DNA of 64,000 nucleotides from Flectonema sp. DT1601 (taxonomy: Eukaryota): the NCBI GenBank assembly GCA_964019425.1, contig OZ025784.1:930001-994000 (forward strand), written 5' to 3'. Under the pieces are notes generated by a model. The model made no database searches, was not told the DNA's origin, and saw only the letters and a list, made by a program, of their open reading frames with translations. The first letter of the stretch is position 1; each line of letters starts with the position of its first letter. This document shows, piece by piece, positions 5,717-40,910 of the stretch. Both the position numbers and the translations under genes were made by a program.

Positions 5717-8700
5717 ATGAGATTACTCAGTCTCTTTATATTGTTATCTAATTATGCGGACGTTATAGCAGCTCCTGTCCCTGCTCCTGTTCCACCTTGC
5801 ACGGCTTCAACTCTGGTTGTGACGGGAAGCACGACTTACGACTGCATGATGACATTGGCACCGACTGTAAACATCCATTGGAACCGTGAAACGAGCGGAA
5901 TGGCTGCGGTTGCGGCGACGACGACGTCGGTCAACGGATGGTTTTCAGTGGCGTTTCCTGATGCTTTGGGTTCGATGATCCCTGCTGTTGGTGTCTCATC
6001 GACCAGTGCGACGGTTGCGGACGTCTTCTCGATTACCGCAAGGAATGCGGGTGGAATCACTTCAACGACGTCGGCAAACATCAACACCCCGACGACTGGG
6101 ATCACGGGTGGCCTGCGTATTCTGAGATTCAACGTCCCTTTTGCATTTTTGACAGCTGCCAAGCCGGTGAACTACGCTCTGCATGCGAGTGAAATGGCGT
6201 TTCCGATGAGCAAACATACCTCAGTAGGAAGTGTGGCAGTGAATTTCTTGGCTCCTGTCCCTGCTCCTGTTCCACCTTGCACGGCTTCAACTCTGGTTGT
6301 GACGGGAAGCACGACTTACGACTGCATGATGGCATTGGCACCGACTGTAAACATCCATTGGAACCGTGAAACGAGCGGAATGGCTGCGGTTGCGGCGACG
6401 ACGACGTCGGTCAACGGATGGTTTTCAGTGGCGTTTCCTGATGCTTTGGGTTCGATGATCCCTGCTGTTGGTGTCTCATCGACCAGTGCGACGGTTGCGG
6501 ACGTCTTCTCGATTACCGCAAGGAATGCGGGTGGAATCACTTCAACGACGTCGGCAAACATCAACACCCCGACGACTGAGATCACGGGTGGCCTGCGTAT
6601 TCTGAGATTCAACGTCCCTTTTGCATTTTTGACAGCTGCCAAGCCGGTGAACTACGCTCTGCATGCGAGTGAAATGGCGTTTCCGATGAGCAAACATACC
6701 TCAGTAGGAAGTGTGGCAGTGAATTTCTTGGCTCCTGTCCCTGCTCCTGTTCCACCTTGCACGGCTTCAACTCTGGTTGTGACGGGAAGCACGACTTACG
6801 ACTGCATGATGGCATTGGCACCGACTGTAAACATCCATTGGAACCGTGAAACGAGCGGAATGGCTGCGGTTGCGGCGACGACGACGTCGGTCAACGGATG
6901 GTTTTCAGTGGCGTTTCCTGATGCTTTGGGTTCGATGATCCCTGCTGTTGGTGTCTCATCGACCAGTGCGACGGTTGCGGACGTCTTCTCGATTACCGCA
7001 AGGAATGCGGGTGGAATCACTTCAACGACGTCGGCAAACATCAACACCCCGACGACTGAGATCACAGGTGGCCTGCGTATTCTGAGATTCAACGTCCCTT
7101 TTGCATTTTTGACAGCTGCCAAGCCGGTGAACTACGCTCTGCATGCGAGTGAAATGGCGTTTCCGATGAGCAAACATACCTCAGTAGGAAGTGTGGCAGT
7201 GAATTTCTTGGCTCCTGTCCCTGCTCCTGTTCCACCTTGCACGGCTTCAACTCTGGTTGTGACGGGAAGCACGACTTACGACTGCATGATGGCATTGGCA
7301 CCGACTGTAAACATCCATTGGAACCGTGAAACGAGCGGAATGGCTGCGGTTGCGGCGACGACGACGTCGGTCAACGGATGGTTTTCAGTGGCGTTTCCTG
7401 ATGCTTTGGGTTCGATGATCCCTGCTGTTGGTGTCTCATCGACCAGTGCGACGGTTGCGGACGTCTTCTCGATTACCGCAAGGAATGCGGGTGGAATCAC
7501 TTCAACGACGTCGGCAAACATCAACACCCCGACGACTGAGATCACGGGTGGCCTGCGTATTCTGAGATTCAACGTCCCTTTTGCATTTTTGACAGCTGCC
7601 AAGCCGGTGAACTACGCTCTGCATGCGAGTGAAATGGCGTTTCCGATGAGCAAACATACCTCAGTAGGAAGTGTGGCAGTGAATTTCTTGGCTCCTGTCC
7701 CTGCTCCTGTTCCACCTTGCACGGCTTCAACTCTGGTTGTGACGGGAAGCACGACTTACGACTGCATGATGGCATTGGCACCGACTGTAAACATCCATTG
7801 GAACCGTGAAACGAGCGGAATGGCTGCGGTTGCGGCGACGACGACGTCGGTCAACGGATGGTTTTCAGTGGCGTTTCCTGATGCTTTGGGTTCGATGATC
7901 CCTGCTGTTGGTGTCTCATCGACCAGTGCGACGGTTGCGGACGTCTTCTCGATTACCGCAAGGAATGCGGGTGGAATCACTTCAACGACGTCGGCAAACA
8001 TCAACACCCCGACGACTGAGATCACGGGTGGCCTGCGTATTCTGAGATTCAACGTCCCTTTTGCATTTTTGACAGCTGCCAAGCCGGTGAACTACGCTCT
8101 GCATGCGAGTGAAATGGCGTTTCCGATGAGCAAACATACCTCAGTAGGAAGTGTGGCAGTGAATTTCTTGGCTCCTGTCCCTGCTCCTGTTCCACCTTGC
8201 ACGGCTTCAACTCTGGTTGTGACGGGAAGCACGACTTACGACTGCATGATGGCATTGGCACCGACTGTAAACATCCATTGGAACCGTGAAACGAGCGGAA
8301 TGGCTGCGGTTGCGGCGACGACGACGTCGGTCAACGGATGGTTTTCAGTGGCGTTTCCTGATGCTTTGGGTTCGATGATCCCTGCTGTTGGTGTCTCATC
8401 GACCAGTGCGACGGTTGCGGACGTCTTCTCGATTACTGCAAGGAATGCGGGTGGAATCACTTCAACGACGTCGGCAAACATCAACACCCCGACGACTGAG
8501 ATCACAGGTGGCCTGCGTATTCTGAGATTCAACGTCCCTTTTGCATTTTTGACAGCTGCCAAGCCGGTGAACTACGCTCTGCATGCGAGTGAAATGGCGT
8601 TTCCGATGAGCAAACATACCTCAGTAGGAAGTGTGGCAGTGAATTTCTTGGCTCCTGTCCCTGCTCCTGTTCCACCTTGCACGGCTTCAACTCTGGTTGT

Positions 8701-11700
8701 GACGGGAAGCACGACTTACGACTGCATGATGGCATTGGCACCGACTGTAAACATCCATTGGAACCGTGAAACGAGCGGAATGGCTGCGGTTGCGGCGACG
8801 ACGACGTCGGTCAACGGATGGTTTTCAGTGGCGTTTCCTGATGCTTTGGGTTCGATGATCCCTGCTGTTGGTGTCTCATCGACCAGTGCGACGGTTGCGG
8901 ACGTCTTCTCGATTACCGCAAGGAATGCGGGTGGAATCACTTCAACGACGTCGGCAAACATCAACACCCCGACGACTGAGATCACGGGTGGCCTGCGTAT
9001 TCTGAGATTCAACGTCCCTTTTGCATTTTTGACAGCTGCCCAGCCGGTGAACTACGCTCTGCATGCGAGTGAAATGGCGTTTCCGATGAGCAAACATACC
9101 TCAGTAGGAAGTGTGGCAGTGAATTTCTTGGCTCCTGTCCCTGCTCCTGTTCCACCTTGCACGGCTTCAACTCTGGTTGTGACGGGAAGCACGACTTACG
9201 ACTGCATGATGGCATTGGCACCGACTGTAAACATCCATTGGAACCGTGAAACGAGCGGAATGGCTGCGGTTGCGGCGACGACGACGTCGGTCAACGGATG
9301 GTTTTCAGTGGCGTTTCCTGATGCTTTGGGTTCGATGATCCCTGCTGTTGGTGTCTCATCGACCAGTGCGACGGTTGCGGACGTCTTCTCGATTACCGCA
9401 AGGAATGCGGGTGGAATCACTTCAACGACGTCGGCAAACATCAACACCCCGACGACTGAGATCACGGGTGGCCTGCGTATTCTGAGATTCAACGTCCCTT
9501 TTGCATTTTTGACAGCTGCCAAGCCGGTGAACTACGCTCTGCATGCGAGTGAAATGGCGTTTCCGATGAGCAAACATACCTCAGTAGGAAGTGTGGCAGT
9601 GAATTTCTTGGCTCCTGTCCCTGCTCCTGTTCCACCTTGCACGGCTTCAACTCTGGTTGTGACGGGAAGCACGACTTACGACTGCATGATGGCATTGGCA
9701 CCGACTGTAAACATCCATTGGAACCGTGAAACGAGCGGAATGGCTGCGGTTGCGGCGACGACGACGTCGGTCAACGGATGGTTTTCAGTGGCGTTTCCTG
9801 ATGCTTTGGGTTCGATGATCCCTGCTGTTGGTGTCTCATCGACCAGTGCGACGGTTGCGGACGTCTTCTCGATTACCGCAAGGAATGCGGGTGGAATCAC
9901 TTCAACGACGTCGGCAAACATCAACACCCCGACGACTGAGATCACGGGTGGCCTGCGTATTCTGAGATTCAACGTCCCTTTTGCATTTTTGACAGCTGCC
10001 AAGCCGGTGAACTACGCTCTGCATGCGAGTGAAATGGCGTTTCCGATGAGCAAACATACCTCAGTAGGAAGTGTGGCAGTGAATTTCTTGGCTCCTGTCC
10101 CTGCTCCTGTTCCACCTTGCACGGCTTCAACTCTGGTTGTGACGGGAAGCACGACTTACGACTGCATGATGGCATTGGCACCGACTGTAAACATCCATTG
10201 GAACCGTGAAACGAGCGGAATGGCTGCGGTTGCGGCGACGACGACGTCGGTCAACGGATGGTTTTCAGTGGCGTTTCCTGATGCTTTGGGTTCGATGATC
10301 CCTGCTGTTGGTGTCTCATCGACCAGTGCGACGGTTGCGGACGTCTTCTCGATTACCGCAAGGAATGCGGGTGGAATCACTTCAACGACGTCGGCAAACA
10401 TCAACACCCCGACGACTGAGATCACGGGTGGCCTGCGTATTCTGAGATTCAACGTCCCTTTTGCATTTTTGACAGCTGCCAAGCCGGTGAACTACGCTCT
10501 GCATGCGAGTGAAATGGCGTTTCCGATGAGCAAACATACCTCAGTAGGAAGTGTGGCAGTGAATTTCTTGGCTCCTGTCCCTGCTCCTGTTCCACCTTGC
10601 ACGGCTTCAACTCTGGTTGTGACGGGAAGCACGACTTACGACTGCATGATGGCATTGGCACCGACTGTAAACATCCATTGGAACCGTGAAACGAGCGGAA
10701 TGGCTGCGGTTGCGGCGACGACGACGTCGGTCAACGGATGGTTTTCAGTGGCGTTTCCTGATGCTTTGGGTTCGATGATCCCTGCTGTTGGTGTCTCATC
10801 GACCAGTGCGACGGTTGCGGACGTCTTCTCGATTACTGCAAGGAATGCGGGTGGAATCACTTCAACGACGTCGGCAAACATCAACACCCCAACGACTGAG
10901 ATCACAGGTGGCCTGCGTATTCTGAGATTCAACGTCCCTTTTGCATTTTTGACAGCTGCCAAGCCGGTGAACTACGCTCTGCATGCGAGTGAAATGGCGT
11001 TTCCGATGAGCAAACATACCTCAGTAGGAAGTGTGGCAGTGAATTTCTTGGCTCCTGTCCCTGCTCCTGTTCCACCTTGCACGGCTTCAACTCTGGTTGT
11101 GACGGGAAGCACGACTTACGACTGCATGATGGCATTGGCACCGACTGTAAACATCCATTGGAACCGTGAAACGAGCGGAATGGCTGCGGTTGCGGCGACG
11201 ACGACGTCGGTCAACGGATGGTTTTCAGTGGCGTTTCCTGATGCTTTGGGTTCGATGATCCCTGCTGTTGGTGTCTCATCGACCAGTGCGACGGTTGCGG
11301 ACGTCTTCTCGATTACCGCAAGGAATGCGGGTGGAATCACTTCAACGACGTCGGCAAACATCAACACCCCGACGACTGAGATCACGGGTGGCCTGCGTAT
11401 TCTGAGATTCAACGTCCCTTTTGCATTTTTGACAGCTGCCAAGCCGGTGAACTACGCTCTGCATGCGAGTGAAATGGCGTTTCCGATGAGCAAACATACC
11501 TCAGTAGGAAGTGTGGCAGTGAATTTCTTGGCTCCTGTCCCAAGTATGCCAGCAACTCCACCACCAACTCCACCACCAACACCACTACCGACTCCACCGC
11601 CAACTCCGCCGCCAACTCCGCCGCCTACTCCACCGCCAACACCGCCACCAACTCCACCACCTACTCCGCCTCCTGTTACGAGCCCTCCAGCTGATGACAC

Positions 11701-13135
11701 GATTAATTTTACAGTTGTAGCGGAATTGAGTGATCTTGTTAACCAGATTGATACGTTGGTAGCTGCTGCTGCTACAGCTGTTGGTGGTACTGCTCGTTGT
11801 AGTATGTTGTGTCAAGGTACTAACTGTGTTAATTGTGATGGCACTGCTGTTAATCAAAGATCTGTTTCTACATTAGCCAGAGAAAATTGGAGAGTTGTTT
11901 TTGTCATTCTTAGCGATGCAAATGGAGAAACTCCGCAAGCAACTGTTGACAATGCTTTGAAGGATCTCTTGTCAAGTAATGCGGTCATTGCTTACGTTGA
12001 GGGAAGTGCTGTTGTTGTTGTAGCTGCTGCGAATAATAACAACCGTGCACAGAGATGTTTGCCATCTTCATTCATAAGAGAAGGAACAACAACTTTTGAT
12101 TGCATGATTGAATTATCTGGAACTGTATCTATGCATTGGACTACGGAGTCTAATGGAGCTAATACTCACATTGCCGTAACTGCTTCAGCTGTGTCTGGAT
12201 GGTTGTCAATCGGTTTCCCTGAAGTTGCGGCGTCAATGAGTCCCGCGACAGCCATTACGGGAAGTTCATCAGTTGCCAATGTGTATTCGATTACTGGAAG
12301 AAGTGCTGCTGGAATATCTCAAATCACGTCTGGTAGTTTCAATGGAATTTCAACAGAAGTTGTAAGCAGTCAGCGTATTCTCAGATTCTCAATGCTTAAA
12401 TCATTCTTGAGGAGCAGTATGCCTGTAAACTTTGCTTATCACGTTAGTAGTACAGCATTCCCAGATAGTAATGCTCAGCATACAACTAGGGGATCGGGTA
12501 TTGTGGATCTTCTTACTGGAACATCACAGGTTGTCGTCGTTAACAGTGACTTTGACGATGCTCACACTCACGGAAGGATCATGGTGGCAATATGGGCGTA
12601 CTGGGTTCCTTTGGCAGTTATTATCAAGGTTCTTGGAGCTTTTGTGTGTAAGGGAGAAGTGTTTGGGTATCCAATACCAGTATTCATTCACATGGTCATG
12701 ATGATTATTGCAATGTGTTTAACTACTGTTTTCGCTTCTATTGCCTTGTCAGACTTTGACAACAGAGTGGACTATGGACATAGAGAACTTGGTGTTACTT
12801 TGTTAGCGATTGGTTGGATTCAAATTTTGAGTGGTATCATAAGGCCAAGCAAGGAATCTGGATACAGAAAGTACTGGGGATGGGGACACGTTCTGTTTGG
12901 TATTTCAGTTGTGGTAATTTCAATCGCTCAAATGGCGACTGGAGTTGAAAATATTAATCGCCTATTCACAAATGACTCGGAGGGGGTTAAGATTGCGATG
13001 ATCGTTGGAGTGGTCACCATGGGTGTTATTTATATTAGCGGAAAGGTTTATGCCGTTGTTATTAAAAATGAAGACGTGATTGCGATTTCAGAAAACAACG
13101 GGGGTAAATCCAATGGTCCTGATCATGAGGCGTAA
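5717..13135 (+). CDS. Poly-DOMON cytochrome b561 protein, paralogue 2 (12 tandem + 1 divergent DOMON)
   Basis: 2472 aa uninterrupted ORF: signal peptide, 12 x 160-aa units, Pro/Thr stalk, SEA-like domain, divergent DOMON (GWLSIGFP..SM..QHTTRG), four-His b561. Confidence 0.88.
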   Translation: MRLLSLFILLSNYADVIAAPVPAPVPPCTASTLVVTGSTTYDCMMTLAPTVNIHWNRETSGMAAVAATTTSVNGWFSVAFPDALGSMIPAVGVSSTSATVADVFSITARNAGGITSTTSANINTPTTGITGGLRILRFNVPFAFLTAAKPVNYALHASEMAFPMSKHTSVGSVAVNFLAPVPAPVPPCTASTLVVTGSTTYDCMMALAPTVNIHWNRETSGMAAVAATTTSVNGWFSVAFPDALGSMIPAVGVSSTSATVADVFSITARNAGGITSTTSANINTPTTEITGGLRILRFNVPFAFLTAAKPVNYALHASEMAFPMSKHTSVGSVAVNFLAPVPAPVPPCTASTLVVTGSTTYDCMMALAPTVNIHWNRETSGMAAVAATTTSVNGWFSVAFPDALGSMIPAVGVSSTSATVADVFSITARNAGGITSTTSANINTPTTEITGGLRILRFNVPFAFLTAAKPVNYALHASEMAFPMSKHTSVGSVAVNFLAPVPAPVPPCTASTLVVTGSTTYDCMMALAPTVNIHWNRETSGMAAVAATTTSVNGWFSVAFPDALGSMIPAVGVSSTSATVADVFSITARNAGGITSTTSANINTPTTEITGGLRILRFNVPFAFLTAAKPVNYALHASEMAFPMSKHTSVGSVAVNFLAPVPAPVPPCTASTLVVTGSTTYDCMMALAPTVNIHWNRETSGMAAVAATTTSVNGWFSVAFPDALGSMIPAVGVSSTSATVADVFSITARNAGGITSTTSANINTPTTEITGGLRILRFNVPFAFLTAAKPVNYALHASEMAFPMSKHTSVGSVAVNFLAPVPAPVPPCTASTLVVTGSTTYDCMMALAPTVNIHWNRETSGMAAVAATTTSVNGWFSVAFPDALGSMIPAVGVSSTSATVADVFSITARNAGGITSTTSANINTPTTEITGGLRILRFNVPFAFLTAAKPVNYALHASEMAFPMSKHTSVGSVAVNFLAPVPAPVPPCTASTLVVTGSTTYDCMMALAPTVNIHWNRETSGMAAVAATTTSVNGWFSVAFPDALGSMIPAVGVSSTSATVADVFSITARNAGGITSTTSANINTPTTEITGGLRILRFNVPFAFLTAAQPVNYALHASEMAFPMSKHTSVGSVAVNFLAPVPAPVPPCTASTLVVTGSTTYDCMMALAPTVNIHWNRETSGMAAVAATTTSVNGWFSVAFPDALGSMIPAVGVSSTSATVADVFSITARNAGGITSTTSANINTPTTEITGGLRILRFNVPFAFLTAAKPVNYALHASEMAFPMSKHTSVGSVAVNFLAPVPAPVPPCTASTLVVTGSTTYDCMMALAPTVNIHWNRETSGMAAVAATTTSVNGWFSVAFPDALGSMIPAVGVSSTSATVADVFSITARNAGGITSTTSANINTPTTEITGGLRILRFNVPFAFLTAAKPVNYALHASEMAFPMSKHTSVGSVAVNFLAPVPAPVPPCTASTLVVTGSTTYDCMMALAPTVNIHWNRETSGMAAVAATTTSVNGWFSVAFPDALGSMIPAVGVSSTSATVADVFSITARNAGGITSTTSANINTPTTEITGGLRILRFNVPFAFLTAAKPVNYALHASEMAFPMSKHTSVGSVAVNFLAPVPAPVPPCTASTLVVTGSTTYDCMMALAPTVNIHWNRETSGMAAVAATTTSVNGWFSVAFPDALGSMIPAVGVSSTSATVADVFSITARNAGGITSTTSANINTPTTEITGGLRILRFNVPFAFLTAAKPVNYALHASEMAFPMSKHTSVGSVAVNFLAPVPAPVPPCTASTLVVTGSTTYDCMMALAPTVNIHWNRETSGMAAVAATTTSVNGWFSVAFPDALGSMIPAVGVSSTSATVADVFSITARNAGGITSTTSANINTPTTEITGGLRILRFNVPFAFLTAAKPVNYALHASEMAFPMSKHTSVGSVAVNFLAPVPSMPATPPPTPPPTPLPTPPPTPPPTPPPTPPPTPPPTPPPTPPPVTSPPADDTINFTVVAELSDLVNQIDTLVAAAATAVGGTARCSMLCQGTNCVNCDGTAVNQRSVSTLARENWRVVFVILSDANGETPQATVDNALKDLLSSNAVIAYVEGSAVVVVAAANNNNRAQRCLPSSFIREGTTTFDCMIELSGTVSMHWTTESNGANTHIAVTASAVSGWLSIGFPEVAASMSPATAITGSSSVANVYSITGRSAAGISQITSGSFNGISTEVVSSQRILRFSMLKSFLRSSMPVNFAYHVSSTAFPDSNAQHTTRGSGIVDLLTGTSQVVVVNSDFDDAHTHGRIMVAIWAYWVPLAVIIKVLGAFVCKGEVFGYPIPVFIHMVMMIIAMCLTTVFASIALSDFDNRVDYGHRELGVTLLAIGWIQILSGIIRPSKESGYRKYWGWGHVLFGISVVVISIAQMATGVENINRLFTNDSEGVKIAMIVGVVTMGVIYISGKVYAVVIKNEDVIAISENNGGKSNGPDHEA
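5771..11530 (+). repeat. Coding tandem array, 12 x 480 bp
   Basis: Exact 480-bp period (antisense shadow ORFs at 5836, 6316 ... 11116), with only a handful of SNPs. Confidence 0.97.
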
Positions 13136-25493: not shown

Positions 25494-25526
<33 letters not shown>

Positions 25527-25891: not shown

Positions 25892-26050
25892 ATCATTAAT
25901 TAATACTCAAACTTGATAACGGATTGAGTGGAACGCCAACACCTGTTGGTTCTAATCACTCGTTTATGCTCCCCGTGTGTTGAGTTTGTGTATGTTTTGT
26001 GATTACAATGGTTTTTATGTTTTGACGAGTGCTTCACTTGTCAAATAGAA
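25892..26050 (+). promoter_or_regulatory. Structured element A, copy downstream of gene 3
   Basis: Same stems, with a loop insertion (ccaaca) and second hairpin tttgacgagtg-ctt-cacttgtcaaa. Confidence 0.5.
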
Positions 26051-30000: not shown

Positions 30001-33000
30001 TTCTCGATTACCGCAAGGAATGCGGGTGGAATCACTACAACGACGTCGGCAAACATCAACACCCCGACGACTGAGATCACAGGTGGCCTGCGTATTCTGA
30101 GATTCAACGTCCCTTTTGCATTTTTGACAGCTGCCCAGCCGGTGAACTACGCTCTGCATGCGAGTGAAATGGCATTTCCGGTGAGCGTTCATACCGCGCG
30201 TGGAAGCGTGGCAGTAGATTTTGTGGTCGGAACGGCTGCTCCTGCGCCGACTCCACCACCAACTCCACCACCTACACCGCCACCAGCAACTCCTGCTCCA
30301 TCTTGTACAGCTTCAACTCTGGTTGTGACGGGAAGCACGACTTACGACTGCATGATGACATTGGCAGGGACTGTAATCATCCATTGGAACCGTGAAACGA
30401 GCGGAATGGCTGCGGTTGCGGCGACGACGACGTCGGTCAACGGATGGTTTTCAGTGGCGTTTCCTGATGCTTTGGGTTCGATGATCCCTGCTGTTGGTGT
30501 CTCATCGACCAGTGCGACGGCTGCGAACATCTTCTCGATTACTGCAAGGAATGCGGGTGGAATCACTACAACGACGTCGGCAAACATCAACACCCCGACG
30601 ACTGAGATCACAGGTGGCATGCGTATTCTGAGATTTAACGTCCCTTTTGCATTTTTGACAGCTGCCCAGCCGGTGAACTACGCTCTGCATGCGAGTGAAA
30701 TGGCATTTCCAGTGAGCGTTCATACCGCGCGTGGAAGCGTGGCAGTAGATTTTGTGGTCGGAACGGCTGCTCCTGCGCCGACTCCACCACCAACTCCACC
30801 ACCTACACCGCCACCAGCAACTCCTGCTCCATCTTGTACAGCTTCAACTCTGGTTGTGACGGGAAGCACGACTTACGACTGCATGATGACATTGGCAGGG
30901 ACTGTAATCATCCATTGGAACCGTGAAACGAGCGGAATGGCTGCGGTTGCGGCGACGACGACGTCGGTCAACGGATGGTTTTCAGTGGCGTTTCCTGATG
31001 CTTTGGGTTCGATGATCCCTGCTGTTGGTGTCTCATCGACCAGTGCGACGGCTGCGAACATCTTCTCGATTACTGCAAGGAATGCGGGTGGAATCACTAC
31101 GACGACGTCGGCAAACATCAACACCCCGACGACTGAGATCACAGGTGGCCTGCGTATTCTGAGATTCAACGTCCCTTTTGCATTTTTGACAGCTGCCCAG
31201 CCGGTGAACTACGCTCTGCATGCGAGTGAAATGGCATTTCCAGTGAGCGTTCATACCGCGCGTGGAAGCGTGGCAGTAGATTTTGTGGTCGGGACGGCTG
31301 CTCCTGCGCCGACTCCACCACCAACTCCACCACCAACTCCACCGCCAACACCACCACCTACACCGCCACCTGCAACCCCTGCTCCATCTTGCACGGCTTC
31401 AACTCTAGTTGTGACGGGAAGCACGACTTACGACTGCATGATGACATTGGCAGGGACTGTAATCATCCATTGGAACCGTGAAACGAGCGGAATGGCTGCG
31501 GTTGCGGCGACGACGACGTCGGTCAACGGATGGTTTTCAGTGGCGTTTCCTGATGCTTTGGGTTCGATGATCCCTGCTGTTGGTGTCTCATCGACCAGTG
31601 CGACGGCTGCGAACGTCTTCTCGATTACCGCAAGGAATGCGGGTGGAATCACTACAACGACGTCGGCAAACATCAACACCCCGACGACTGAGATCACAGG
31701 TGGCCTGCGTATTCTGAGATTCAACGTCCCTTTTGCATTTTTGACAGCTGCCCAGCCGGTGAACTACGCTCTGCATGCGAGTGAAATGGCATTTCCAGTG
31801 AGCGTTCATACCGCGCGTGGAAGCGTGGCAGTAGATTTTGTGGTCGGAACGGCTGCTCCTGCGCCGACTCCACCACCAACTCCACCACCTACACCGCCAC
31901 CTGCAACCCCTGCTCCATCTTGCACGGCTTCAACTCTGGTTGTGACGGGAAGCACGACTTACGACTGCATGATGACATTGGCAGGGACTGTAATCATCCA
32001 TTGGAACCGTGAAACGAGCGGAATGGCTGCGGTTGCGGCGACGACGACGTCGGTCAACGGATGGTTTTCAGTGGCGTTTCCTGATGCTTTGGGTTCGATG
32101 ATCCCTGCTGTTGGTGTCTCATCAACCAGTGCGACGGCTGCGAACATCTTCTCGATTACCGCAAGGAATGCGGGTGGAATCACTACAACGACGTCGGCAA
32201 ACATCAACACCCCGACGACTGAGATCACAGGTGGCCTGCGTATTCTGAGATTCAACGTCCCTTTTGCATTTTTGACAGCTGCCCAGCCGGTGAACTACGC
32301 TCTGCATGCGAGTGAAATGGCATTTCCAGTGAGCGTTCATACCGCGCGTGGAAGCGTGGCAGTAGATTTTGTGGTCGGAACGGCTGCTCCTGCGCCGACT
32401 CCACCACCAACTCCACCACCTACACCGCCACCTGCAACCCCTGCTCCATCTTGCACTGCTTCAACTCTGGTTGTGACGGGAAGCACGACTTACGACTGCA
32501 TGATGACATTGGCAGGGACTGTAATCATCCATTGGAACCGTGAAACGAGCGGAATGGCTGCGGTTGCGGCGACGACGACGTCGGTCAACGGATGGTTTTC
32601 AGTGGCGTTTCCTGATGCTTTGGGTTCGATGATCCCTGCTGTTGGTGTCTCATCGACCAGTGCGACGGCTGCGAACATCTTCTCGATTACTGCAAGGAAT
32701 GCGGGTGGAATCACTACGACGACGTCGGCAAACATCAACACCCCGACGACTGAGATCACAGGTGGCCTGCGTATTCTGAGATTCAACGTCCCTTTTGCAT
32801 TTTTGACAGCTGCCCAGCCGGTGAACTACGCTCTGCATGCGAGTGAAATGGCATTTCCAGTGAGCGTTCATACCGCGCGTGGAAGCGTGGCAGTAGATTT
32901 TGTGGTCGGGACGGCTGCTCCTGCGCCAACTCCACCACCAACTCCACCACCTACACCGCCACCTGCAACCCCTGCTCCATCTTGTACAGCTTCAACTTTG

Positions 33001-36000
33001 GTTGTGACGGGAAGCACGACTTACGACTGCATGATGACATTGGCAGGGACTGTAATCATCCATTGGAACCGTGAAACGAGCGGAATGGCTGCGGTTGCGG
33101 CGACGACGACGTCGGTCAACGGATGGTTTTCAGTGGCGTTTCCTGATGCTTTGGGTTCGATGATCCCTGCTGTTGGTGTCTCATCGACCAGTGCGACGGC
33201 TGCGAACATCTTCTCGATTACCGCAAGGAATGCGGGTGGAATCACTACAACGACGTCGGCAAACATCAACACCCCGACGACTGAGATCACAGGTGGCCTG
33301 CGTATTCTGAGATTCAACGTCCCTTTTGCATTTTTGACAGCTGCCCAGCCGGTGAACTACGCTCTGCATGCGAGTGAAATGGCATTTCCAGTGAGCGTTC
33401 ATACCGCGCGTGGAAGCGTGGCAGTAGATTTTGTGGTCGGGACGGCTGCTCCTGCGCCGACTCCACCACCAACTCCACCACCAACTCCACCACCTACACC
33501 GCCACCTGCAACCCCTGCTCCATCTTGCACGGCTTCAACTCTAGTTGTGACGGGAAGCACGACTTACGACTGCATGATGACATTGGCAGGGACTGTAATC
33601 ATCCATTGGAACCGTGAAACGAGCGGAATGGCTGCGGTTGCGGCGACGACGACGTCGGTCAACGGATGGTTTTCAGTGGCGTTTCCTGATGCTTTGGGTT
33701 CGATGATCCCTGCTGTTGGTGTCTCATCGACCAGTGCGACGGCTGCGAACATCTTCTCGATTACCGCAAGGAATGCGGGTGGAATCACTACAACGACGTC
33801 GGCAAACATCAACACCCCGACGACTGAGATCACAGGTGGCCTGCGTATTCTGAGATTCAACGTCCCTTTTGCATTTTTGACAGCTGCCCAGCCGGTGAAC
33901 TACGCTCTGCATGCGAGTGAAATGGCATTTCCAGTGAGCGTTCATACCGCGCGTGGAAGCGTGGCAGTAGATTTTGTGGTCGGGACGGCTGCTCCTGCGC
34001 CAACTCCACCACCAACTCCACCACCAACTCCACCACCAACTCCACCACCAACTCCACCACCTACACCGCCACCTGCAACCCCTGCTCCATCTTGCACGGC
34101 TTCAACTCTAGTTGTGACGGGAAGCACGACTTACGACTGCATGATGACATTAGCAGGGACTGTAATCATCCATTGGAACCGTGAAACGAGCGGAATGGCT
34201 GCGGTTGCGGCGACGACGACGTCGGTCAACGGATGGTTTTCAGTGGCGTTTCCTGATGCTTTGGGTTCGATGATCCCTGCTGTTGGTGTCTCATCGACCA
34301 GTGCGACGGCTGCGAACATCTTCTCGATTACTGCAAGGAATGCGGGTGGAATCACTACAACGACGTCGGCAAACATCAACACCCCGACGACTGAGATCAC
34401 AGGTGGCCTGCGTATTCTGAGATTCAACGTCCCTTTTGCATTTTTGACAGCTGCCCAGCCGGTGAACTACGCTCTGCATGCGAGTGAAATGGCATTTCCA
34501 GTGAGCGTTCATACCGCGCGTGGAAGCGTGGCAGTAGATTTTGTGGTCGGGACGGCTGCTCCTGCGCCGACTCCACCACCAACTCCACCACCAACTCCAC
34601 CGCCAACACCACCACCTACACCGCCACCTGCAACCCCTGCTCCATCTTGCACGGCTTCAACTCTAGTTGTGACGGGAAGCACGACTTACGACTGCATGAT
34701 GACATTAGCAGGGACTGTAATCATCCATTGGAACCGTGAAACGAGCGGAATGGCTGCGGTTGCGGCGACGACGACGTCGGTCAACGGATGGTTTTCAGTG
34801 GCGTTTCCTGATGCTTTGGGTTCGATGATCCCTGCTGTTGGTGTCTCATCGACCAGTGCGACGGCTGCGAACATCTTCTCGATTACTGCAAGGAATGCGG
34901 GTGGAATCACTACGACGACGTCGGCAAACATCAACACCCCGACGACTGAGATCACAGGTGGCCTGCGTATTCTGAGATTCAACGTCCCTTTTGCATTTTT
35001 GACAGCTGCCCAGCCGGTGAACTACGCTCTGCATGCGAGTGAAATGGCATTTCCAGTGAGCGTTCATACCGCGCGTGGAAGCGTGGCAGTAGATTTTGTG
35101 GTCGGGACGGCTGCTCCTGCGCCGACTCCACCACCAACTCCACCACCAACTCCACCACCAACTCCACCACCTACACCGCCACCTGCAACCCCTGCTCCAT
35201 CTTGCACGGCTTCAACTCTAGTTGTGACAGGAAGCACGACTTACGACTGCATGATGACATTAGCAGGGACTGTAATCATCCATTGGAACCGTGAAACGAG
35301 CGGAATGGCTGCGGTTGCGGCGACGACGACGTCGGTCAACGGATGGTTTTCAGTGGCGTTTCCTGATGCTTTGGGTTCGATGATCCCTGCTGTTGGTGTC
35401 TCATCGACCAGTGCGACGTCTGCGAACATCTTTTCGATTACTGCAAGGAATGCGGGTGGAATCACTACGACGACGTCGGCAAACATCAACACCCCGACGA
35501 CTGAGATCACGGGTGGCCTGCGTATTCTGAGATTCAACGTCCCTTTTGCATTTTTGACAGCTGCCCAGCCGGTGAACTACGCTCTGCATGCGAGTGAAAT
35601 GGCATTTCCAGTGAGCGTTCATACCGCGCGTGGAAGCGTGGCAGTAGATTTTGTGGTCGGGACGGCTGCTCCTGCGCCGACTCCACCACCAACTCCACCA
35701 CCAACTCCACCGCCAACACCACCACCTACACCGCCACCTGCAACCCCTGCTCCATCTTGCACGGCTTCAACTCTAGTTGTGACGGGAAGCACGACTTACG
35801 ACTGCATGATGACATTAGCAGGGACTGTAATCATCCATTGGAACCGTGAAACGAGCGGAATGGCTGCGGTTGCGGCGACGACGACGTCGGTCAACGGATG
35901 GTTTTCAGTGGCGTTTCCTGATGCTCTGGGTTCGATGATCCCTGCTGTTGGTGTCTCATCGACCAGTGCGACGGCTGCGAACATCTTCTCGATTACTGCA

Positions 36001-39000
36001 AGGAATGCGGGTGGAATCACTACGACGACGTCGGCAAACATCAACACCCCGACGACTGAGATCACAGGTGGCCTGCGTATTCTGAGATTTAACGTCCCTT
36101 TTGCATTTTTGACAGCTGCCCAGCCGGTGAACTACGCTCTGCATGCGAGTGAAATGGCATTTCCAGTGAGCGTTCATACCGCGCGTGGAAGCGTGGCAGT
36201 AGATTTTGTGGTCGGGACGGCTGCTCCTGCGCCGACTCCACCACCAACTCCACCACCAACTCCACCACCTACACCGCCACCTGCAACCCCTGCTCCATCT
36301 TGCACGGCTTCAACTCTAGTTGTGACGGGAAGCACGACTTACGACTGCATGATGACATTGGCAGGGACTGTAATCATCCATTGGAACCGTGAAACGAGCG
36401 GAATGGCTGCGGTTGCGGCGACGACGACGTCGGTCAACGGATGGTTTTCAGTGGCGTTTCCTGATGCTTTGGGTTCGATGATCCCTGCTGTTGGTGTCTC
36501 ATCGACCAGTGCGACGGCTGCGAACATCTTCTCGATTACCGCAAGGAATGCGGGTGGAATCACTACAACGACGTCGGCAAACATCAACACCCCGACGACT
36601 GAGATCACAGGTGGCCTGCGTATTCTGAGATTCAACGTCCCTTTTGCATTTTTGACAGCTGCCCAGCCGGTGAACTACGCTCTGCATGCGAGTGAAATGG
36701 CATTTCCAGTGAGCGTTCATACCGCGCGTGGAAGCGTGGCAGTAGATTTTGTGGTCGGGACGGCTGCTCCTGCGCCAACTCCACCACCAACTCCACCGCC
36801 AACTCCACCACCAACTCCACCACCAACTCCACCACCAACTCCACCACCAACTCCACCACCTACACCGCCACCTGCAACCCCTGCTCCATCTTGCACGGCT
36901 TCAACTCTAGTTGTGACGGGAAGCACGACTTACGACTGCATGATGACATTGGCAGGGACTGTAATCATCCATTGGAACCGTGAAACGAGCGGAATGGCTG
37001 CGGTTGCGGCGACGACGACGTCGGTCAACGGATGGTTTTCAGTGGCGTTTCCTGATGCTTTGGGTTCGATGATCCCTGCTGTTGGTGTCTCATCGACCAG
37101 TGCGACGGCTGCGAACATCTTCTCGATTACTGCAAGGAATGCGGGTGGAATCACTACGACGACGTCGGCAAACATCAACACCCCGACGACTGAGATCACA
37201 GGTGGCCTGCGTATTCTGAGATTCAACGTCCCTTTTGCATTTTTGACAGCTGCCCAGCCGGTGAACTACGCTCTGCATGCGAGTGAAATGGCATTTCCAG
37301 TGAGCGTTCATACCGCGCGTGGAAGCGTGGCAGTAGATTTTGTGGTCGGGACGGCTGCTCCTGCGCCGACTCCACCACCAACTCCACCACCAACTCCACC
37401 ACCAACTCCACCACCAACTCCACCACCTACACCGCCACCTGCAACCCCTGCTCCATCTTGCACGGCTTCAACTCTGGTTGTGACGGGAAGCACGACTTAC
37501 GACTGCATGATGACATTGGCAGGGACTGTAATCATCCATTGGAACCGTGAAACGAGCGGAATGGCTGCGGTTGCGGCGACGACGACGTCGGTCAACGGAT
37601 GGTTTTCAGTGGCGTTTCCTGATGCTTTGGGTTCGATGATCCCTGCTGTTGGTGTCTCATCGACCAGTGCGACGGCTGCGAACGTCTTCTCGATTACCGC
37701 AAGGAATGCGGGTGGAATCACTACAACGACGTCGGCAAACATCAACACCCCGACGACTGAGATCACAGGTGGCCTGCGTATTCTGAGATTCAACGTCCCT
37801 TTTGCATTTTTGACAGCTGCCCAGCCGGTGAACTACGCTCTGCATGCGAGTGAAATGGCATTTCCAGTGAGCGTACATACCGCGCGTGGAAGCGTGGCAG
37901 TAGATTTTGTGGTCGGAACGGCTGCTCCTGCGCCAACTCCACCACCAACTCCACCGCCAACTCCACCACCAACTCCACCACCAACTCCACCACCTACACC
38001 GCCACCTGCAACTCCTGCTCCATCTTGCACGGCTTCAACTCTGGTTGTTACGGGAAGCACGACTTACGACTGCATGATGACATTGGCAGGGACTGTAATC
38101 ATCCATTGGAACCGTGAAACGAGCGGAATGGCTGCGGTTGCGGCGACGACGACGTCGGTCAACGGATGGTTTTCAGTGGCGTTTCCTGATGCTTTGGGTT
38201 CGATGATCCCTGCTGTTGGTGTCTCATCGACCAGTGCGACGGCTGCGAACGTCTTCTCGATTACCGCAAGGAATGTGGGTGGAATCACTACAACGATGTC
38301 GGCAAACATCAACACCCCGACGACTGAGATCACAGGTGGCCTGCGTATTCTGAGATTCAACGTCCCTTTTGCATTTTTGACAGCTGCCCAGCCGGTGAAC
38401 TACGCTCTGCATGCGAGTGAAATGGCATTTCCAGTGAGCGTTCATACCGCGCGTGGAAGCGTGGCAGTAGATTTTGTGGGTGGGACTGCTGCTCCTGCGC
38501 CAACACCACCACCAACTCCACCGCCTACTCCACCGCCAACACCACCACCAACTCCGCCGCCTACTCCACCACCAACACCACCACCGACTCCGCCGCCAAC
38601 TCCGCCGCCTACTCCACCGCCAACACCGCCACCAACTCCACCACCTACGCCGCCTCCTGTTACGAGCCCTCCAGCTGATGACACGATTAATTTTACAGTT
38701 GTAGCGGAATTGAGTGATCTTGTTAACCAGATTGATACGTTGGTAGCTGCTGCTGCTACAGCTGTCGGTGGTACTGCTCGTTGTAGTATGTTGTGTCAAG
38801 GTACTAACTGTGTTAATTGTGATGGCACTGCTGTTAATCAAAGATCTGTTTCTACATTAGCCAGAGAAAATTGGAGAGTTGTTTTTGTCATTCTTAGCGA
38901 TGCAAATGGAGAAACTCCGCAAGCAACTGTTGACAATGCTTTGAAGGATCTCTTGTCAAGTAATGCGGTCATTGCTTACGTTGAGGGAAGTGCTGTTGTT

Positions 39001-40119
39001 GTTGTAGCTGCTGCGAATAATAACAACCGTGCACAGAGATGTTTGCCATCTTCATTCATAAGAGAAGGAACAACAACTTTTGATTGCATGATTGAATTAT
39101 CTGGAACTGTATCTATGCATTGGACTACGGAGTCTAATGGAGCTAATACTCACATTGCCGTAACTGCTTCAGCTGTGTCTGGATGGTTGTCAATCGGTTT
39201 CCCTGAAGTTGCGGCGTCAATGAGTCCCGCGACAGCCATTACGGGAAGTTCATCAGTTGCCAATGTGTATTCGATTACTGGAAGAAGTGCTGCTGGAATA
39301 TCTCAAATCACGTCTGGTAGTTTCAATGGAATTTCAACAGAAGTTGTAAGCAGTCAGCGTATTCTCAGATTCTCAATGCTTAAATCATTCTTGAGGAGCA
39401 GTATGCCTGTAAACTTTGCTTATCACGTTAGTAGTACAGCATTCCCAGATAGTAATGCTCAGCATACAACTAGGGGATCGGGTATTGTGGATCTTCTTAC
39501 TGGAACATCACAGGTTGTCGTCGTTAACAGTGACTTTGACGATGCTCACACTCACGGAAGGATCATGGTGGCAATATGGGCGTACTGGGTTCCTTTGGCA
39601 GTTATTATCAAGGTTCTTGGAGCTTTTGTGTGTAAGGGAGAAGTGTTTGGGTATCCAATACCAGTATTCATTCACATGGTCATGATGATTATTGCAATGT
39701 GTTTAACTACTGTTTTCGCTTCTATTGCCTTGTCAGACTTTGACAACAGAGTGGACTATGGACATAGAGAACTTGGTGTTACTTTGTTAGCGATTGGTTG
39801 GATTCAAATTTTGAGTGGTATCATAAGGCCAAGCAAGGAATCTGGATACAGAAAGTACTGGGGATGGGGACACGTTCTGTTTGGTATTTCAGTTGTGGTA
39901 ATTTCAATCGCTCAAATGGCGACTGGAGTTGAAAATATTAATCGTCTATTCACAAATGACTCGGAGGGGGTTAAGATTGCGATGATCGTTGGAGTGGTCA
40001 CCATGGGTGTTATTTATATTAGCGGAAAGGTTTATGCCGTTGTTATTAAAAATGAAGACGTGATTGCGATTTCAGAAAACAACGGGGGTAAATCCAATGG
40101 TCCTGATCATGAAGCGTGA
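27010..40119 (+). CDS. Poly-DOMON cytochrome b561 protein, paralogue 4 (21 tandem + 1 divergent DOMON)
   Basis: 4369 aa ORF with 21 units and variable (TPPP)n linkers; same C-terminal module as paralogues 2 and 3. Confidence 0.88.
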   Translation: MRLLSLFILLSYYADVTAAPAPTPPPTPPPATPAPSCTASTLVVTGSTTYDCMMTLAGTVIIHWNRETSGMAAVAATTTSVNGWFSVAFPDALGSMIPAVGVSSTSATAANIFSITARNAGGITTTTSANINTPTTEITGGLRILRFNVPFAFLTAAQPVNYALHASEMAFPVSVHTARGSVAVDFVVGTAAPAPTPPPTPPPTPPPATPAPSCTASTLVVTGSTTYDCMMTLAGTVIIHWNRETSGMAAVAATTTSVNGWFSVAFPDALGSMIPAVGVSSTSATVANIFSITARNAGGITTTTSANINTPTTEITGGMRILRFNVPFAFLTAAQPVNYALHASEMAFPVSVHTARGSVAVDFVVGTAAPAPTPPPTPPPTPPPATPAPSCTASTLVVTGSTTYDCMMTLAGTVIIHWNRETSGMAAVAATTTSVNGWFSVAFPDALGSMIPAVGVSSTSATAANIFSITARNAGGITTTTSANINTPTTEITGGLRILRFNVPFAFLTAAQPVNYALHASEMAFPVSVHTARGSVAVDFVVGTAAPAPTPPPTPPPTPPPATPAPSCTASTLVVTGSTTYDCMMTLAGTVIIHWNRETSGMAAVAATTTSVNGWFSVAFPDALGSMIPAVGVSSTSATAANIFSITARNAGGITTTTSANINTPTTEITGGLRILRFNVPFAFLTAAQPVNYALHASEMAFPVSVHTARGSVAVDFVVGTAAPAPTPPPTPPPTPPPATPAPSCTASTLVVTGSTTYDCMMTLAGTVIIHWNRETSGMAAVAATTTSVNGWFSVAFPDALGSMIPAVGVSSTSATAANIFSITARNAGGITTTTSANINTPTTEITGGMRILRFNVPFAFLTAAQPVNYALHASEMAFPVSVHTARGSVAVDFVVGTAAPAPTPPPTPPPTPPPATPAPSCTASTLVVTGSTTYDCMMTLAGTVIIHWNRETSGMAAVAATTTSVNGWFSVAFPDALGSMIPAVGVSSTSATAANIFSITARNAGGITTTTSANINTPTTEITGGLRILRFNVPFAFLTAAQPVNYALHASEMAFPVSVHTARGSVAVDFVVGTAAPAPTPPPTPPPTPPPATPAPSCTASTLVVTGSTTYDCMMTLAGTVIIHWNRETSGMAAVAATTTSVNGWFSVAFPDALGSMIPAVGVSSTSATAANIFSITARNAGGITTTTSANINTPTTEITGGMRILRFNVPFAFLTAAQPVNYALHASEMAFPVSVHTARGSVAVDFVVGTAAPAPTPPPTPPPTPPPATPAPSCTASTLVVTGSTTYDCMMTLAGTVIIHWNRETSGMAAVAATTTSVNGWFSVAFPDALGSMIPAVGVSSTSATAANIFSITARNAGGITTTTSANINTPTTEITGGLRILRFNVPFAFLTAAQPVNYALHASEMAFPVSVHTARGSVAVDFVVGTAAPAPTPPPTPPPTPPPTPPPTPPPATPAPSCTASTLVVTGSTTYDCMMTLAGTVIIHWNRETSGMAAVAATTTSVNGWFSVAFPDALGSMIPAVGVSSTSATAANVFSITARNAGGITTTTSANINTPTTEITGGLRILRFNVPFAFLTAAQPVNYALHASEMAFPVSVHTARGSVAVDFVVGTAAPAPTPPPTPPPTPPPATPAPSCTASTLVVTGSTTYDCMMTLAGTVIIHWNRETSGMAAVAATTTSVNGWFSVAFPDALGSMIPAVGVSSTSATAANIFSITARNAGGITTTTSANINTPTTEITGGLRILRFNVPFAFLTAAQPVNYALHASEMAFPVSVHTARGSVAVDFVVGTAAPAPTPPPTPPPTPPPATPAPSCTASTLVVTGSTTYDCMMTLAGTVIIHWNRETSGMAAVAATTTSVNGWFSVAFPDALGSMIPAVGVSSTSATAANIFSITARNAGGITTTTSANINTPTTEITGGLRILRFNVPFAFLTAAQPVNYALHASEMAFPVSVHTARGSVAVDFVVGTAAPAPTPPPTPPPTPPPATPAPSCTASTLVVTGSTTYDCMMTLAGTVIIHWNRETSGMAAVAATTTSVNGWFSVAFPDALGSMIPAVGVSSTSATAANIFSITARNAGGITTTTSANINTPTTEITGGLRILRFNVPFAFLTAAQPVNYALHASEMAFPVSVHTARGSVAVDFVVGTAAPAPTPPPTPPPTPPPTPPPATPAPSCTASTLVVTGSTTYDCMMTLAGTVIIHWNRETSGMAAVAATTTSVNGWFSVAFPDALGSMIPAVGVSSTSATAANIFSITARNAGGITTTTSANINTPTTEITGGLRILRFNVPFAFLTAAQPVNYALHASEMAFPVSVHTARGSVAVDFVVGTAAPAPTPPPTPPPTPPPTPPPTPPPTPPPATPAPSCTASTLVVTGSTTYDCMMTLAGTVIIHWNRETSGMAAVAATTTSVNGWFSVAFPDALGSMIPAVGVSSTSATAANIFSITARNAGGITTTTSANINTPTTEITGGLRILRFNVPFAFLTAAQPVNYALHASEMAFPVSVHTARGSVAVDFVVGTAAPAPTPPPTPPPTPPPTPPPTPPPATPAPSCTASTLVVTGSTTYDCMMTLAGTVIIHWNRETSGMAAVAATTTSVNGWFSVAFPDALGSMIPAVGVSSTSATAANIFSITARNAGGITTTTSANINTPTTEITGGLRILRFNVPFAFLTAAQPVNYALHASEMAFPVSVHTARGSVAVDFVVGTAAPAPTPPPTPPPTPPPTPPPTPPPATPAPSCTASTLVVTGSTTYDCMMTLAGTVIIHWNRETSGMAAVAATTTSVNGWFSVAFPDALGSMIPAVGVSSTSATSANIFSITARNAGGITTTTSANINTPTTEITGGLRILRFNVPFAFLTAAQPVNYALHASEMAFPVSVHTARGSVAVDFVVGTAAPAPTPPPTPPPTPPPTPPPTPPPATPAPSCTASTLVVTGSTTYDCMMTLAGTVIIHWNRETSGMAAVAATTTSVNGWFSVAFPDALGSMIPAVGVSSTSATAANIFSITARNAGGITTTTSANINTPTTEITGGLRILRFNVPFAFLTAAQPVNYALHASEMAFPVSVHTARGSVAVDFVVGTAAPAPTPPPTPPPTPPPTPPPATPAPSCTASTLVVTGSTTYDCMMTLAGTVIIHWNRETSGMAAVAATTTSVNGWFSVAFPDALGSMIPAVGVSSTSATAANIFSITARNAGGITTTTSANINTPTTEITGGLRILRFNVPFAFLTAAQPVNYALHASEMAFPVSVHTARGSVAVDFVVGTAAPAPTPPPTPPPTPPPTPPPTPPPTPPPTPPPTPPPATPAPSCTASTLVVTGSTTYDCMMTLAGTVIIHWNRETSGMAAVAATTTSVNGWFSVAFPDALGSMIPAVGVSSTSATAANIFSITARNAGGITTTTSANINTPTTEITGGLRILRFNVPFAFLTAAQPVNYALHASEMAFPVSVHTARGSVAVDFVVGTAAPAPTPPPTPPPTPPPTPPPTPPPTPPPATPAPSCTASTLVVTGSTTYDCMMTLAGTVIIHWNRETSGMAAVAATTTSVNGWFSVAFPDALGSMIPAVGVSSTSATAANVFSITARNAGGITTTTSANINTPTTEITGGLRILRFNVPFAFLTAAQPVNYALHASEMAFPVSVHTARGSVAVDFVVGTAAPAPTPPPTPPPTPPPTPPPTPPPTPPPATPAPSCTASTLVVTGSTTYDCMMTLAGTVIIHWNRETSGMAAVAATTTSVNGWFSVAFPDALGSMIPAVGVSSTSATAANVFSITARNVGGITTTMSANINTPTTEITGGLRILRFNVPFAFLTAAQPVNYALHASEMAFPVSVHTARGSVAVDFVGGTAAPAPTPPPTPPPTPPPTPPPTPPPTPPPTPPPTPPPTPPPTPPPTPPPTPPPTPPPVTSPPADDTINFTVVAELSDLVNQIDTLVAAAATAVGGTARCSMLCQGTNCVNCDGTAVNQRSVSTLARENWRVVFVILSDANGETPQATVDNALKDLLSSNAVIAYVEGSAVVVVAAANNNNRAQRCLPSSFIREGTTTFDCMIELSGTVSMHWTTESNGANTHIAVTASAVSGWLSIGFPEVAASMSPATAITGSSSVANVYSITGRSAAGISQITSGSFNGISTEVVSSQRILRFSMLKSFLRSSMPVNFAYHVSSTAFPDSNAQHTTRGSGIVDLLTGTSQVVVVNSDFDDAHTHGRIMVAIWAYWVPLAVIIKVLGAFVCKGEVFGYPIPVFIHMVMMIIAMCLTTVFASIALSDFDNRVDYGHRELGVTLLAIGWIQILSGIIRPSKESGYRKYWGWGHVLFGISVVVISIAQMATGVENINRLFTNDSEGVKIAMIVGVVTMGVIYISGKVYAVVIKNEDVIAISENNGGKSNGPDHEA
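27061..38490 (+). repeat. Coding tandem array, 21 units of 531-591 bp
   Basis: Unit spacings from shadow ORFs: 531 x7, 555, 531 x3, 543, 567, 555 x3, 543, 591, 567, 567. Confidence 0.95.

Positions 40120-40879: not shown

Positions 40880-40910
<31 letters not shown>

Follow-up and report, generated by a model that had tools for sequence, protein, structure and literature searches.

Giant poly-DOMON cytochrome b561 proteins in the diplonemid Flectonema: recently amplified arrays and a candidate tethered pool of electron carriers

Proteins of the CYBDOM type have a DOMON domain N-terminal to a cytochrome b561 domain with four His residues. Here, we discuss three neighboring genes, g1, g2, and g3, in which this architecture is extended to 13, 17, and 22 DOMONs, respectively. 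The genes lie in a window of 64,000 nucleotides (nt) from Flectonema sp. DT1601 (contig OZ025784.1, positions 930,001 to 994,000; coordinates below are positions in the window). The outer part of the encoded proteins has been enlarged lately by tandem duplication of units, and the reading frame of these units is under selection. We favor, at about even confidence, a reading of g1–g3 as CYBDOM-type trans-membrane reductases in which the DOMON string would act as a pool of electron carriers on flexible tethers, not as a fixed wire. In the full-text literature searched, neither such arrays nor DOMON proteins of diplonemids are the subject of any paper, and the extreme amplification of heme-type DOMONs, repeated independently, appears to be undescribed there.

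Architecture of the giant genes

All three genes are long open reading frames on the plus strand with no internal stop codon. g1 (5717–13135; 2472 amino acids [aa]) encodes 12 repeat units, g2 (14555–24733; 3392 aa) encodes 16, and g3 (27010–40119; 4369 aa) encodes 21, each followed by one divergent, membrane-proximal DOMON and a b561 domain. These counts, anchored on the first Cys of each unit, agree exactly with an earlier, sequence-only reading of the window. The order of parts is the same throughout: likely signal peptide, array, Pro/Thr stalk, spacer domain, proximal DOMON, 11 residues, and b561. Signal peptides were judged by eye, and the first DOMON begins after the signal peptide and a short linker. 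The g1 array (5771–11541, plus strand) consists of 12.0 copies of a 480-nt unit, i.e., a 150-aa DOMON and the 9-aa linker APVPAPVPP. The g2 array (14663–23089, plus strand) has 16 units with a 531-nt period (one of 543 nt) and Pro/Thr linkers of 26–30 aa, and the g3 array (27118–38475, plus strand) has 21 units with Pro/Thr linkers of 26–46 aa; in residues, the repeat periods are 160 (g1), 177–181 (g2), and 177–197 (g3). The stalk is 57 aa long in g1 (11528–11698, plus strand) and 69 aa in g2 and g3. In g1, it leads into a spacer domain of ~115 aa with four Cys (approximate boundaries 11699–12030, plus strand), the proximal DOMON (12056–12535, plus strand; 44% identity to the repeat unit), and, after the 11-aa gap, the b561 domain (12560–13117, plus strand). 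The corresponding plus-strand positions are, for the proximal DOMON, from 23654 in g2 and from 39040 in g3 and, for b561, about 24158–24715 and 39544–40101. A short paralog of 686 aa, g0, lies upstream of g1 (854–2914, plus strand). It starts with a likely signal peptide and a single Met/His DOMON (from 911), which a 200-aa Pro/Thr stalk connects to the spacer domain and b561; the membrane-proximal DOMON is lacking. The stalk and spacer domain, this fourth paralog, and the 96.9–100% DNA identity of the units were absent from the sequence-only reading.

The repeat units are assigned to the DOMON family because of their fold and their homologs, Pfam support being weak. Pfam returns the DOMON and b561 names only below its cut-off: DOMON has E 4.4e-4 in the divergent proximal unit and E 1.7e-3 in that of g0, and b561 has E 1.3e-3. 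An AlphaFold2 model of one unit is an all-beta sandwich with a predicted local distance difference test (pLDDT) score of 88–96 per 10-residue block. Comparison of this model with 48,161 solved chains (VIA) gave Z scores of at least 8 in seven rows. The top match is dopamine beta-hydroxylase (4ZEL; Z 14.5, root-mean-square deviation [rmsd] 2.6, 136 residues aligned), in line with the DOMON nature claimed from the sequence. Heme-b cytochrome domains of pyranose/cellobiose dehydrogenase follow with Z scores of 11.8, 11.4, 11.0, and 10.9, among them 6JT6 (Z 11.8, rmsd 2.9, 142 aligned), 4QI3 (Z 11.4, rmsd 3.1, 146 aligned), and 1D7C (Z 10.9, rmsd 3.2, 144 aligned), and then chain C of ethylbenzene dehydrogenase (2IVF_C; Z 9.8) and chain C of nitrite oxidoreductase (Z 9.1). 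All top rows belong to the DOMON superfamily, unrelated Ig folds score 7.0 or less, and Foldseek likewise ranks 4ZEL first. A single-sequence search of the PDB returned nothing below E 0.36. Five other Pfam families (Gp53-like_C, ATPgrasp_Ter, Tafi-CsgC, Herpes_US8A, and DUF2977) had high summed whole-protein scores with 0 passing stretches; we rejected them because these scores are sums over 12–21 weak repeats.

Residues that would ligate heme are kept throughout. A Met (in FP..GSM or FP..ASM), a His in an xHT motif 80–81 residues further on, and a Cys1–Cys16 pair are present in 52/52 units, as the sequence-only reading had noted. With a local profile iterated over the homologous protein set, 190 of the 195 distinct DOMON sequences, Pfam-positive ones included, retain both the Met and the His column (within two columns). 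Each DOMON unit is predicted to bind one b-heme.

The membrane core of g1–g3, comprising the proximal DOMON and b561, has the anatomy of the Arabidopsis CYBDOMs HYP1 and CRR. The four His that the sequence-only reading had assigned to b561 (2285, 2325, 2355, and 2391 in g1) align with those of human Dcytb (5ZLE, E 9.3e-5) and Arabidopsis AtCytb561 (4O6Y, E 1.7e-4) in a family profile. Their spacing is 70/66, and hydropathy shows four strong segments and one weak segment (the third). HYP1 has a His spacing of 67/69 and an Arg, R307, modeled as an ascorbate contact (PMC10784544; papers are cited by PMC number). An Arg seven residues before the fourth His (H4-7; Arg2384 in g1) matches R307. In the ESM Atlas, the top matches to the proximal DOMON plus b561 are CYBDOM clusters (0.93–0.94).

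The spacer domain has a predicted order of beta-alpha-beta-beta-alpha-beta (pLDDT 50–81), which would suit the ferredoxin-like fold of SEA domains. A SEA cluster in the ESM Atlas scores only 0.78, and a SEA-like fold is a lead and nothing firmer. Structure searches gave no fold match for it; the lists were filled by DOMON, and the missing match is thus no evidence of a new fold. In all four paralogs (11699–12055 in g1), the spacer region has a CxxLCxxxxCxxC pattern followed by a predicted disordered loop, NQRSVSTL, and RAQR stands directly ahead of the proximal DOMON in g1–g3. Cleavage at the loop or at RAQR could, speculatively, release the array.

Duplication history and the reality of the arrays

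Units within a gene are close to identical in DNA (98.9–100% in g1, 97.8–100% in g2, and 96.9–100% in g3). Distinct unit cores number 7 of 12 in g1, 12 of 16 in g2, and 21 of 21 in g3, and the variant patterns are mosaic. Units differ in length only by whole 12-nt linker repeats. Among the 37 repeat units of g2 and g3, 19 of the distinct variants are synonymous and 8 are non-synonymous. Random single changes would be synonymous in 26% of cases, or 30% with transition bias, and the excess is significant under either model (p 1.5e-6 and 1.4e-5, respectively); the units are under selection as coding sequence. Between the consensus units of g1 and g2, the non-synonymous divergence (dN) is 0.051 and the synonymous divergence (dS) is 0.107.

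The paralogs themselves are also recent. The C-terminal 1.45 kb is 99.7–99.8% identical across g1–g3, and the 3′ flank of g2 (24734–26261, plus strand) is 98.8% identical to that of g3 (40120–41645), which we take as a trace of recent whole-gene duplication. On the 5′ side, g2 and g3 are less alike, their flanks sharing only 90% identity and showing 71 gaps. The simplest reading of this history is recent tandem gene duplication with conversion. The b561 DNA of g0 matches that of g1–g3 over 550 nt at 97%, whereas the spacer-domain DNA matches at 84%, and local gene conversion of the b561 part is likely.

It is very improbable that the arrays reflect an assembly artefact, a false duplication, or 5′ repeats that the mature mRNA lacks. 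The identity among units is very high, which favors such a reading, g2 and g3 with their 98.8% identical 3′ flanks could be haplotypes placed in tandem, a look-up of public runs listed no RNA run for this DNA (which says nothing about expression), and in Diplonema papillatum, tandem 5′ gene extensions absent from the mRNA have been reported (PMC10161547). However, the D. papillatum repeats are degenerate and contain untranslated regions, whereas the units here are whole, in-frame domains behind a single signal peptide. The skew of variants to synonymous sites, the restriction of length changes to whole 12-nt linker repeats, and the divergence of the 5′ flanks likewise speak against an artefact. 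So does a contig from a public sequencing run, X1, that shares 7% of sampled words with the window. This 561-nt contig (depth 9.9) passes through one unit and rejoins its own start; its loose ends, of which 30 letters each were examined, map to the g2 unit with a 30-nt self-overlap (561 = 531 + 30), and all 12 of its diagnostic sites agree with the g2/g3 type. Such a presumably circular contig would be the de Bruijn signature of a head-to-tail repeat. It supports tandem repetition but not the exact copy numbers, and the run may not be independent of the assembly. Among the X1 pieces shown, there is no g1-type unit contig; the unit depth of 9.9 compared with no cover on b561 is only suggestive, and gaps in X1 prove nothing. 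A scan for pyrimidine tracts was uninformative, with best scores of 15–17 of 20 within units and 14–19 of 20 upstream, i.e., no separation.

Downstream of the giant genes, the neighbors are co-oriented and apparently intron-free: a myosin motor-domain protein (1159 aa; 42299–45778, plus strand), an HPP-family transmembrane protein (214 aa; 47658–48302, plus strand), and an ATP-dependent DNA ligase-domain protein (808 aa; 48935–51361; Pfam DNA_ligase_A_M, E 8.7e-25), the C-terminal domain of which has no assignment. The shared orientation and apparent lack of introns in these neighbors are consistent with a euglenozoan. Further on, a multi-pass membrane protein (1402 aa; 55140–59348) has a weak PqiA match (E 2.2e-5) and a large N-terminal part without assignment.

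Relatives, rarity, and separate expansions

A search of 1.84 billion representatives with a profile built from four window units gave 83 proteins. Most of the 44 that were scanned with Pfam have a DOMON, and many have b561. Among relatives with a name, those of the diplonemid Flectonema neradi come nearest, at 65% identity across one unit, with Lacrimia, Rhynchopus, and Artemidia more distant. Transcriptome assemblies hold a four-DOMON protein with b561 from F. neradi and a 12-DOMON protein with b561 from Arcella intermedia, i.e., relatives of the giant genes are transcribed. Among the 83 representatives, 29 have one DOMON and 54 have two or more; five or more are found in 8, and ten or more in 1, the Arcella transcript. 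The highest numbers in the papers searched are two DOMONs, in 19 of 888 insect CYBDOMs (PMC10691727), and one or two on ferric reductases of Naegleria and oomycetes (PMC3591440). Proteins with more than ten DOMONs are, thus, rare without being unique, and no count in these non-exhaustive searches exceeds the 17 and 22 seen here. The sequence-only reading had named no described CYBDOM with this copy number. The number is exceptional, but Arcella reaches 12 with b561 and the array of Styela clava, described below, reaches 13 without it.

The Arcella protein (EukProt EP01124 P027227 = P0049, with P0097 as the full-length form, P0096, and one JGI/IMG member) has about 2560 aa in P0097, with a signal peptide, 12 DOMONs, EGF spacers, and a C-terminal b561. 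Met and His are kept in 12 of its 12 units, which are only 24–42% identical to one another; from their sequences, the amplification would be old. The protein is apparently uncharacterized. A search with it led to Styela clava LOC120338002 (P0098), which has 13 Pfam DOMON stretches in 2799 aa and in which b561 was not found. The two Styela forms (P0098 and P0099) span 2.6–2.8 kaa, with 12–13 Pfam DOMON stretches, acidic low-complexity spacers, and a hydrophobic C-terminus; Met and His are confirmed in 8 of 12 aligned units, the others being poorly aligned. A quick tree was built with 103 domains taken from 27 of these proteins, near-identical window units and short fragments being omitted. In this tree, the Arcella units, the Styela units, and the window repeat units form groups apart from each other (Shimodaira–Hasegawa-like approximate likelihood ratio test values of 81, 97, and 99, respectively), and the window units nest among their paralogs. 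Since the three sets cluster apart, we treat the expansions as separate events. Animals may hold further proteins with more than ten DOMONs: a survey of giant DOMON proteins scored 7986 candidates, with 63 of 67 matches driven by EGF modules (tenascin, reelin), and is incomplete. Among 117 pattern matches in metagenome contigs, there was no relative.

Recent expansions on a smaller scale are seen repeatedly. P0066 combines b561 with five near-identical units and a divergent one; P0022 carries six units but no b561, and its DOMONs, like those of P0023, are joined with almost no linker. The close relatives P0015, P0020, and P0022 have 2–6 DOMONs and a single hydrophobic C-terminal segment, with no b561. 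In g0, P0009, P0010, and P0014, DOMONs lie 150–323 residues from b561, with no proximal DOMON.

Two further architectures turned up among the relatives. P0023 (Lacrimia lanifica), P0045 (Artemidia motanka), P0035, P0038, P0042, and P0046 combine 1–5 DOMONs and b561 with cytochrome b5 and an adenylate/guanylate cyclase, several of them with extracellular desulfoferrodoxin or heme-peroxidase domains in front. By their domain order, these fusions look like redox-sensing receptor cyclases, and they may be more novel than the giant arrays. P0102 has four Met/His DOMONs with EGF modules on an NADPH-type ferric reductase (Ferric_reduct with FAD and NAD binding), i.e., DOMON arrays also occur on another membrane electron donor.

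The wider set of relatives bears on the idea that only the membrane core matters and that the arrays act as a spacer of mucin type or as an adhesive coat, the copy number of which drifts by unequal crossing-over. Met and His would then be kept for folding or through homogenization. We consider this quite unlikely. The 97–100% identity of the mosaic units and the 99.7–99.8% identity of the C-terminal region do point to very recent amplification or conversion, substitution of Met or His impairs trafficking of HYP1 (PMC10784544), and coral DOMON proteins have been classed as adhesion proteins (PMC3204972). However, homogenization cannot account for Met and His being kept across divergent domains, as they are in all 12 Arcella units and in 190 of 195 diverse domains, and arrays arose separately in several lineages.

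Electron transfer and comparison with known systems

In HYP1 and CRR, electrons pass from ascorbate in the cytosol to ferric or cupric acceptors outside the cell (PMC10784544; PMC10784552), and in a HYP1 model, the DOMON-to-b561 Fe–Fe distance is 20.9 Å (PMC10784544). The role of the DOMON in characterized CYBDOMs is still open in these papers and in PMC10691727. By analogy with HYP1 and CRR, a cytosolic reductant, probably ascorbate, would reduce the two b561 hemes of g1–g3, and these would in turn reduce the DOMON that lies 11 residues from the membrane domain. The linker anatomy suggests that distal units could be charged through transient collisions when their Pro/Thr tethers flex, in a manner similar to that of the mobile cytochrome domain in cellobiose dehydrogenase. 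Possible acceptors outside the cell include ferric or cupric chelates, iron on food particles, and quinones. Each membrane anchor would thereby extend farther and store more electrons. At 3.1 Å per residue and 3.5–4.5 nm per domain, the maximum contour length would be about 90–100 nm for g1, 200–215 nm for g2, and 285–305 nm for g3.

A rival reading is an ordered heme wire, in which adjacent units would be packed with their hemes in tunneling range as a eukaryotic counterpart of bacterial multiheme conduits. We regard a wire as very unlikely. The g1 linkers of only 9 aa and the nearly linker-free DOMONs of P0022 and P0023 are in its favor. A two-unit g1 AlphaFold model (mean pLDDT 93.6) has a predicted template modeling (pTM) score of 0.67 compared with 0.52 for a model with a long linker; this may hint at a preferred orientation, although the value neither proves nor rules out a fixed interface between units. 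In g2 and g3, by contrast, the linkers of 26–46 aa would extend over about 80–140 Å, and the stalk adds 180–210 Å and a domain. With such linkers, a stalk of 57–69 aa, and a spacer domain, most hemes would be far beyond single-step tunneling unless the chain folds back. A static wire is thus unlikely in g2 and g3, and in all three genes the stalk and spacer domain would break it ahead of the membrane core. There is also only one heme per ~150-aa domain, and CXXCH motifs number 0 in P0001–P0004. The proposal of a long heme conduit analogous to bacterial multiheme systems, put forward in the sequence-only reading, is weakened accordingly, whereas the redox capacitor and heme-scavenging coat that it also named are still tenable. 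In g0, P0009, P0010, and P0014, where the proximal DOMON is missing, any electron transfer must use a mobile domain; their distant DOMONs suggest that the lineage already uses tethered DOMONs.

Alternatively, the arrays could be a coat for heme capture or storage, in which the DOMONs avidly bind free or prey-derived heme, with b561 and the proximal DOMON setting its redox state or releasing iron. This is unlikely, in our view. It agrees with Met and His being kept in every unit and with DOMON arrays that lack b561 in P0015, P0020, P0022, and Styela, and long linkers are no obstacle to capture. Moreover, no heme pathway was found in Diplonema papillatum, on little data (Cenci et al., PMC4870792). 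Yet this hint of auxotrophy comes from sparse 2016 data, and the word heme is absent from the main text of the later diplonemid metabolism papers PMC7052976 and PMC8611851. In addition, bis-axial Met/His ligation in a DOMON fold is known from electron-transfer cytochromes.

Several observations weigh against a tethered pool of electron carriers. P0015, P0020, and P0022 indicate that an array need not share its chain with an electron source. Neither of the repeat units scanned, two in number, has a Pfam DOMON match. The second ascorbate contact of HYP1, N311, is a Gly in these proteins. The window units lack an Asp four residues past the Met that the Arcella and Styela units keep and that, in the insect protein CG8399, has been suggested to contribute to an iron site (PMC10691727); iron as the acceptor, therefore, has no motif support. 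The Pro/Thr tethers, if stiff and glycosylated, may prevent the needed collisions. A range of 1 to 22 copies among paralogs fits drift by unequal crossing-over equally well as selection for length. Lastly, the synonymous excess comes mainly from g3 (18:6) and is small in g1 (3:3) and in g2 alone (6:5).

A bolder version of the tethered-carrier reading is that giant heme antennae arose on protist surfaces several times independently, as single chains in which up to 22 Met/His b-hemes and two membrane hemes carry electrons 0.1–0.3 micrometers outward. Cytosolic electrons would hop between flexibly tethered domains in diplonemids and in testate amoebae alike. We think this improbable; if true, eukaryotes would have their own form of long-range extracellular electron transfer, directed at particles or the walls of prey. 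Should the units be redox-coupled, the proteins would be among the most heme-rich eukaryotic polypeptides, with up to 24 predicted hemes, and would offer a new protist route to reduce particulate iron, in a group that is among the most abundant marine microeukaryotes (PMC10161547). If the units are uncoupled, they are a striking recent domain amplification within a known family. Characterized CYBDOMs have one or two DOMONs, whereas the series here includes 1, 3, 4, 5, 6, 12, 13, 17, and 22 copies. This natural series, with near-identical units in one organism, makes the role of the DOMON testable as reach, capacity, or heme capture.

Among known systems, the CYBDOMs are nearest: Arabidopsis HYP1 and CRR, human FRRS1/SDR2, and Drosophila CG8399 share with g1–g3 a signal peptide (likely in g1–g3) and a Met/His DOMON directly before b561, and the b561 domains are alike in their four His, His spacing, the Arg at H4-7, and, probably, about five helices. 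g1–g3 differ in having 13–22 DOMONs instead of one or two, along with Pro/Thr linkers, a stalk, and a spacer domain. In contrast to FRRS1, SDR2, and CG8399, they have no reeler domain (no Pfam Reeler match), and the acidic SXDXXMGXD motif is absent, the window units reading FPDALGSMIPAV and FPEVAASMSPAT. Of the CYBDOM/FRRS1-type architecture that had been suggested, the CYBDOM type is borne out. By architecture, g1–g3 belong to the CYBDOM family, with a reductase role presumed from that membership, and fall outside both the FRRS1/SDR2 subfamily and the bacterial conduits.

The Arcella protein shares with g1–g3 a signal peptide, many Met/His DOMONs, and a C-terminal b561, but its units are divergent, EGF-spaced, of the canonical M-x-x-x-D type, and in a tree group of their own. 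Styela LOC120338002 likewise has 13 DOMONs in one chain, but with acidic spacers and no b561 found. The cytochrome domain of cellobiose/pyranose dehydrogenase (1D7C, 4QI3, and 6JT6; Z 10.9–11.8) has the same fold as the units and a Met/His b-heme (PMC10691727). One such domain sits on a soluble flavo- or quinoprotein in those enzymes, whereas g1–g3 have an array on a membrane b561. In cellobiose dehydrogenase, the domain is a linker-tethered mobile electron carrier. Bacterial conduits such as MtrCAB and OmcS have densely packed, covalent c-type hemes in a surface-exposed chain linked to a trans-membrane electron path. Like them, g1–g3 have many hemes (here predicted) per surface chain tied to a trans-membrane electron path; unlike them, g1–g3 lack CXXCH, their linkers are long and flexible, and only a single b-heme is predicted for each 150-aa domain.

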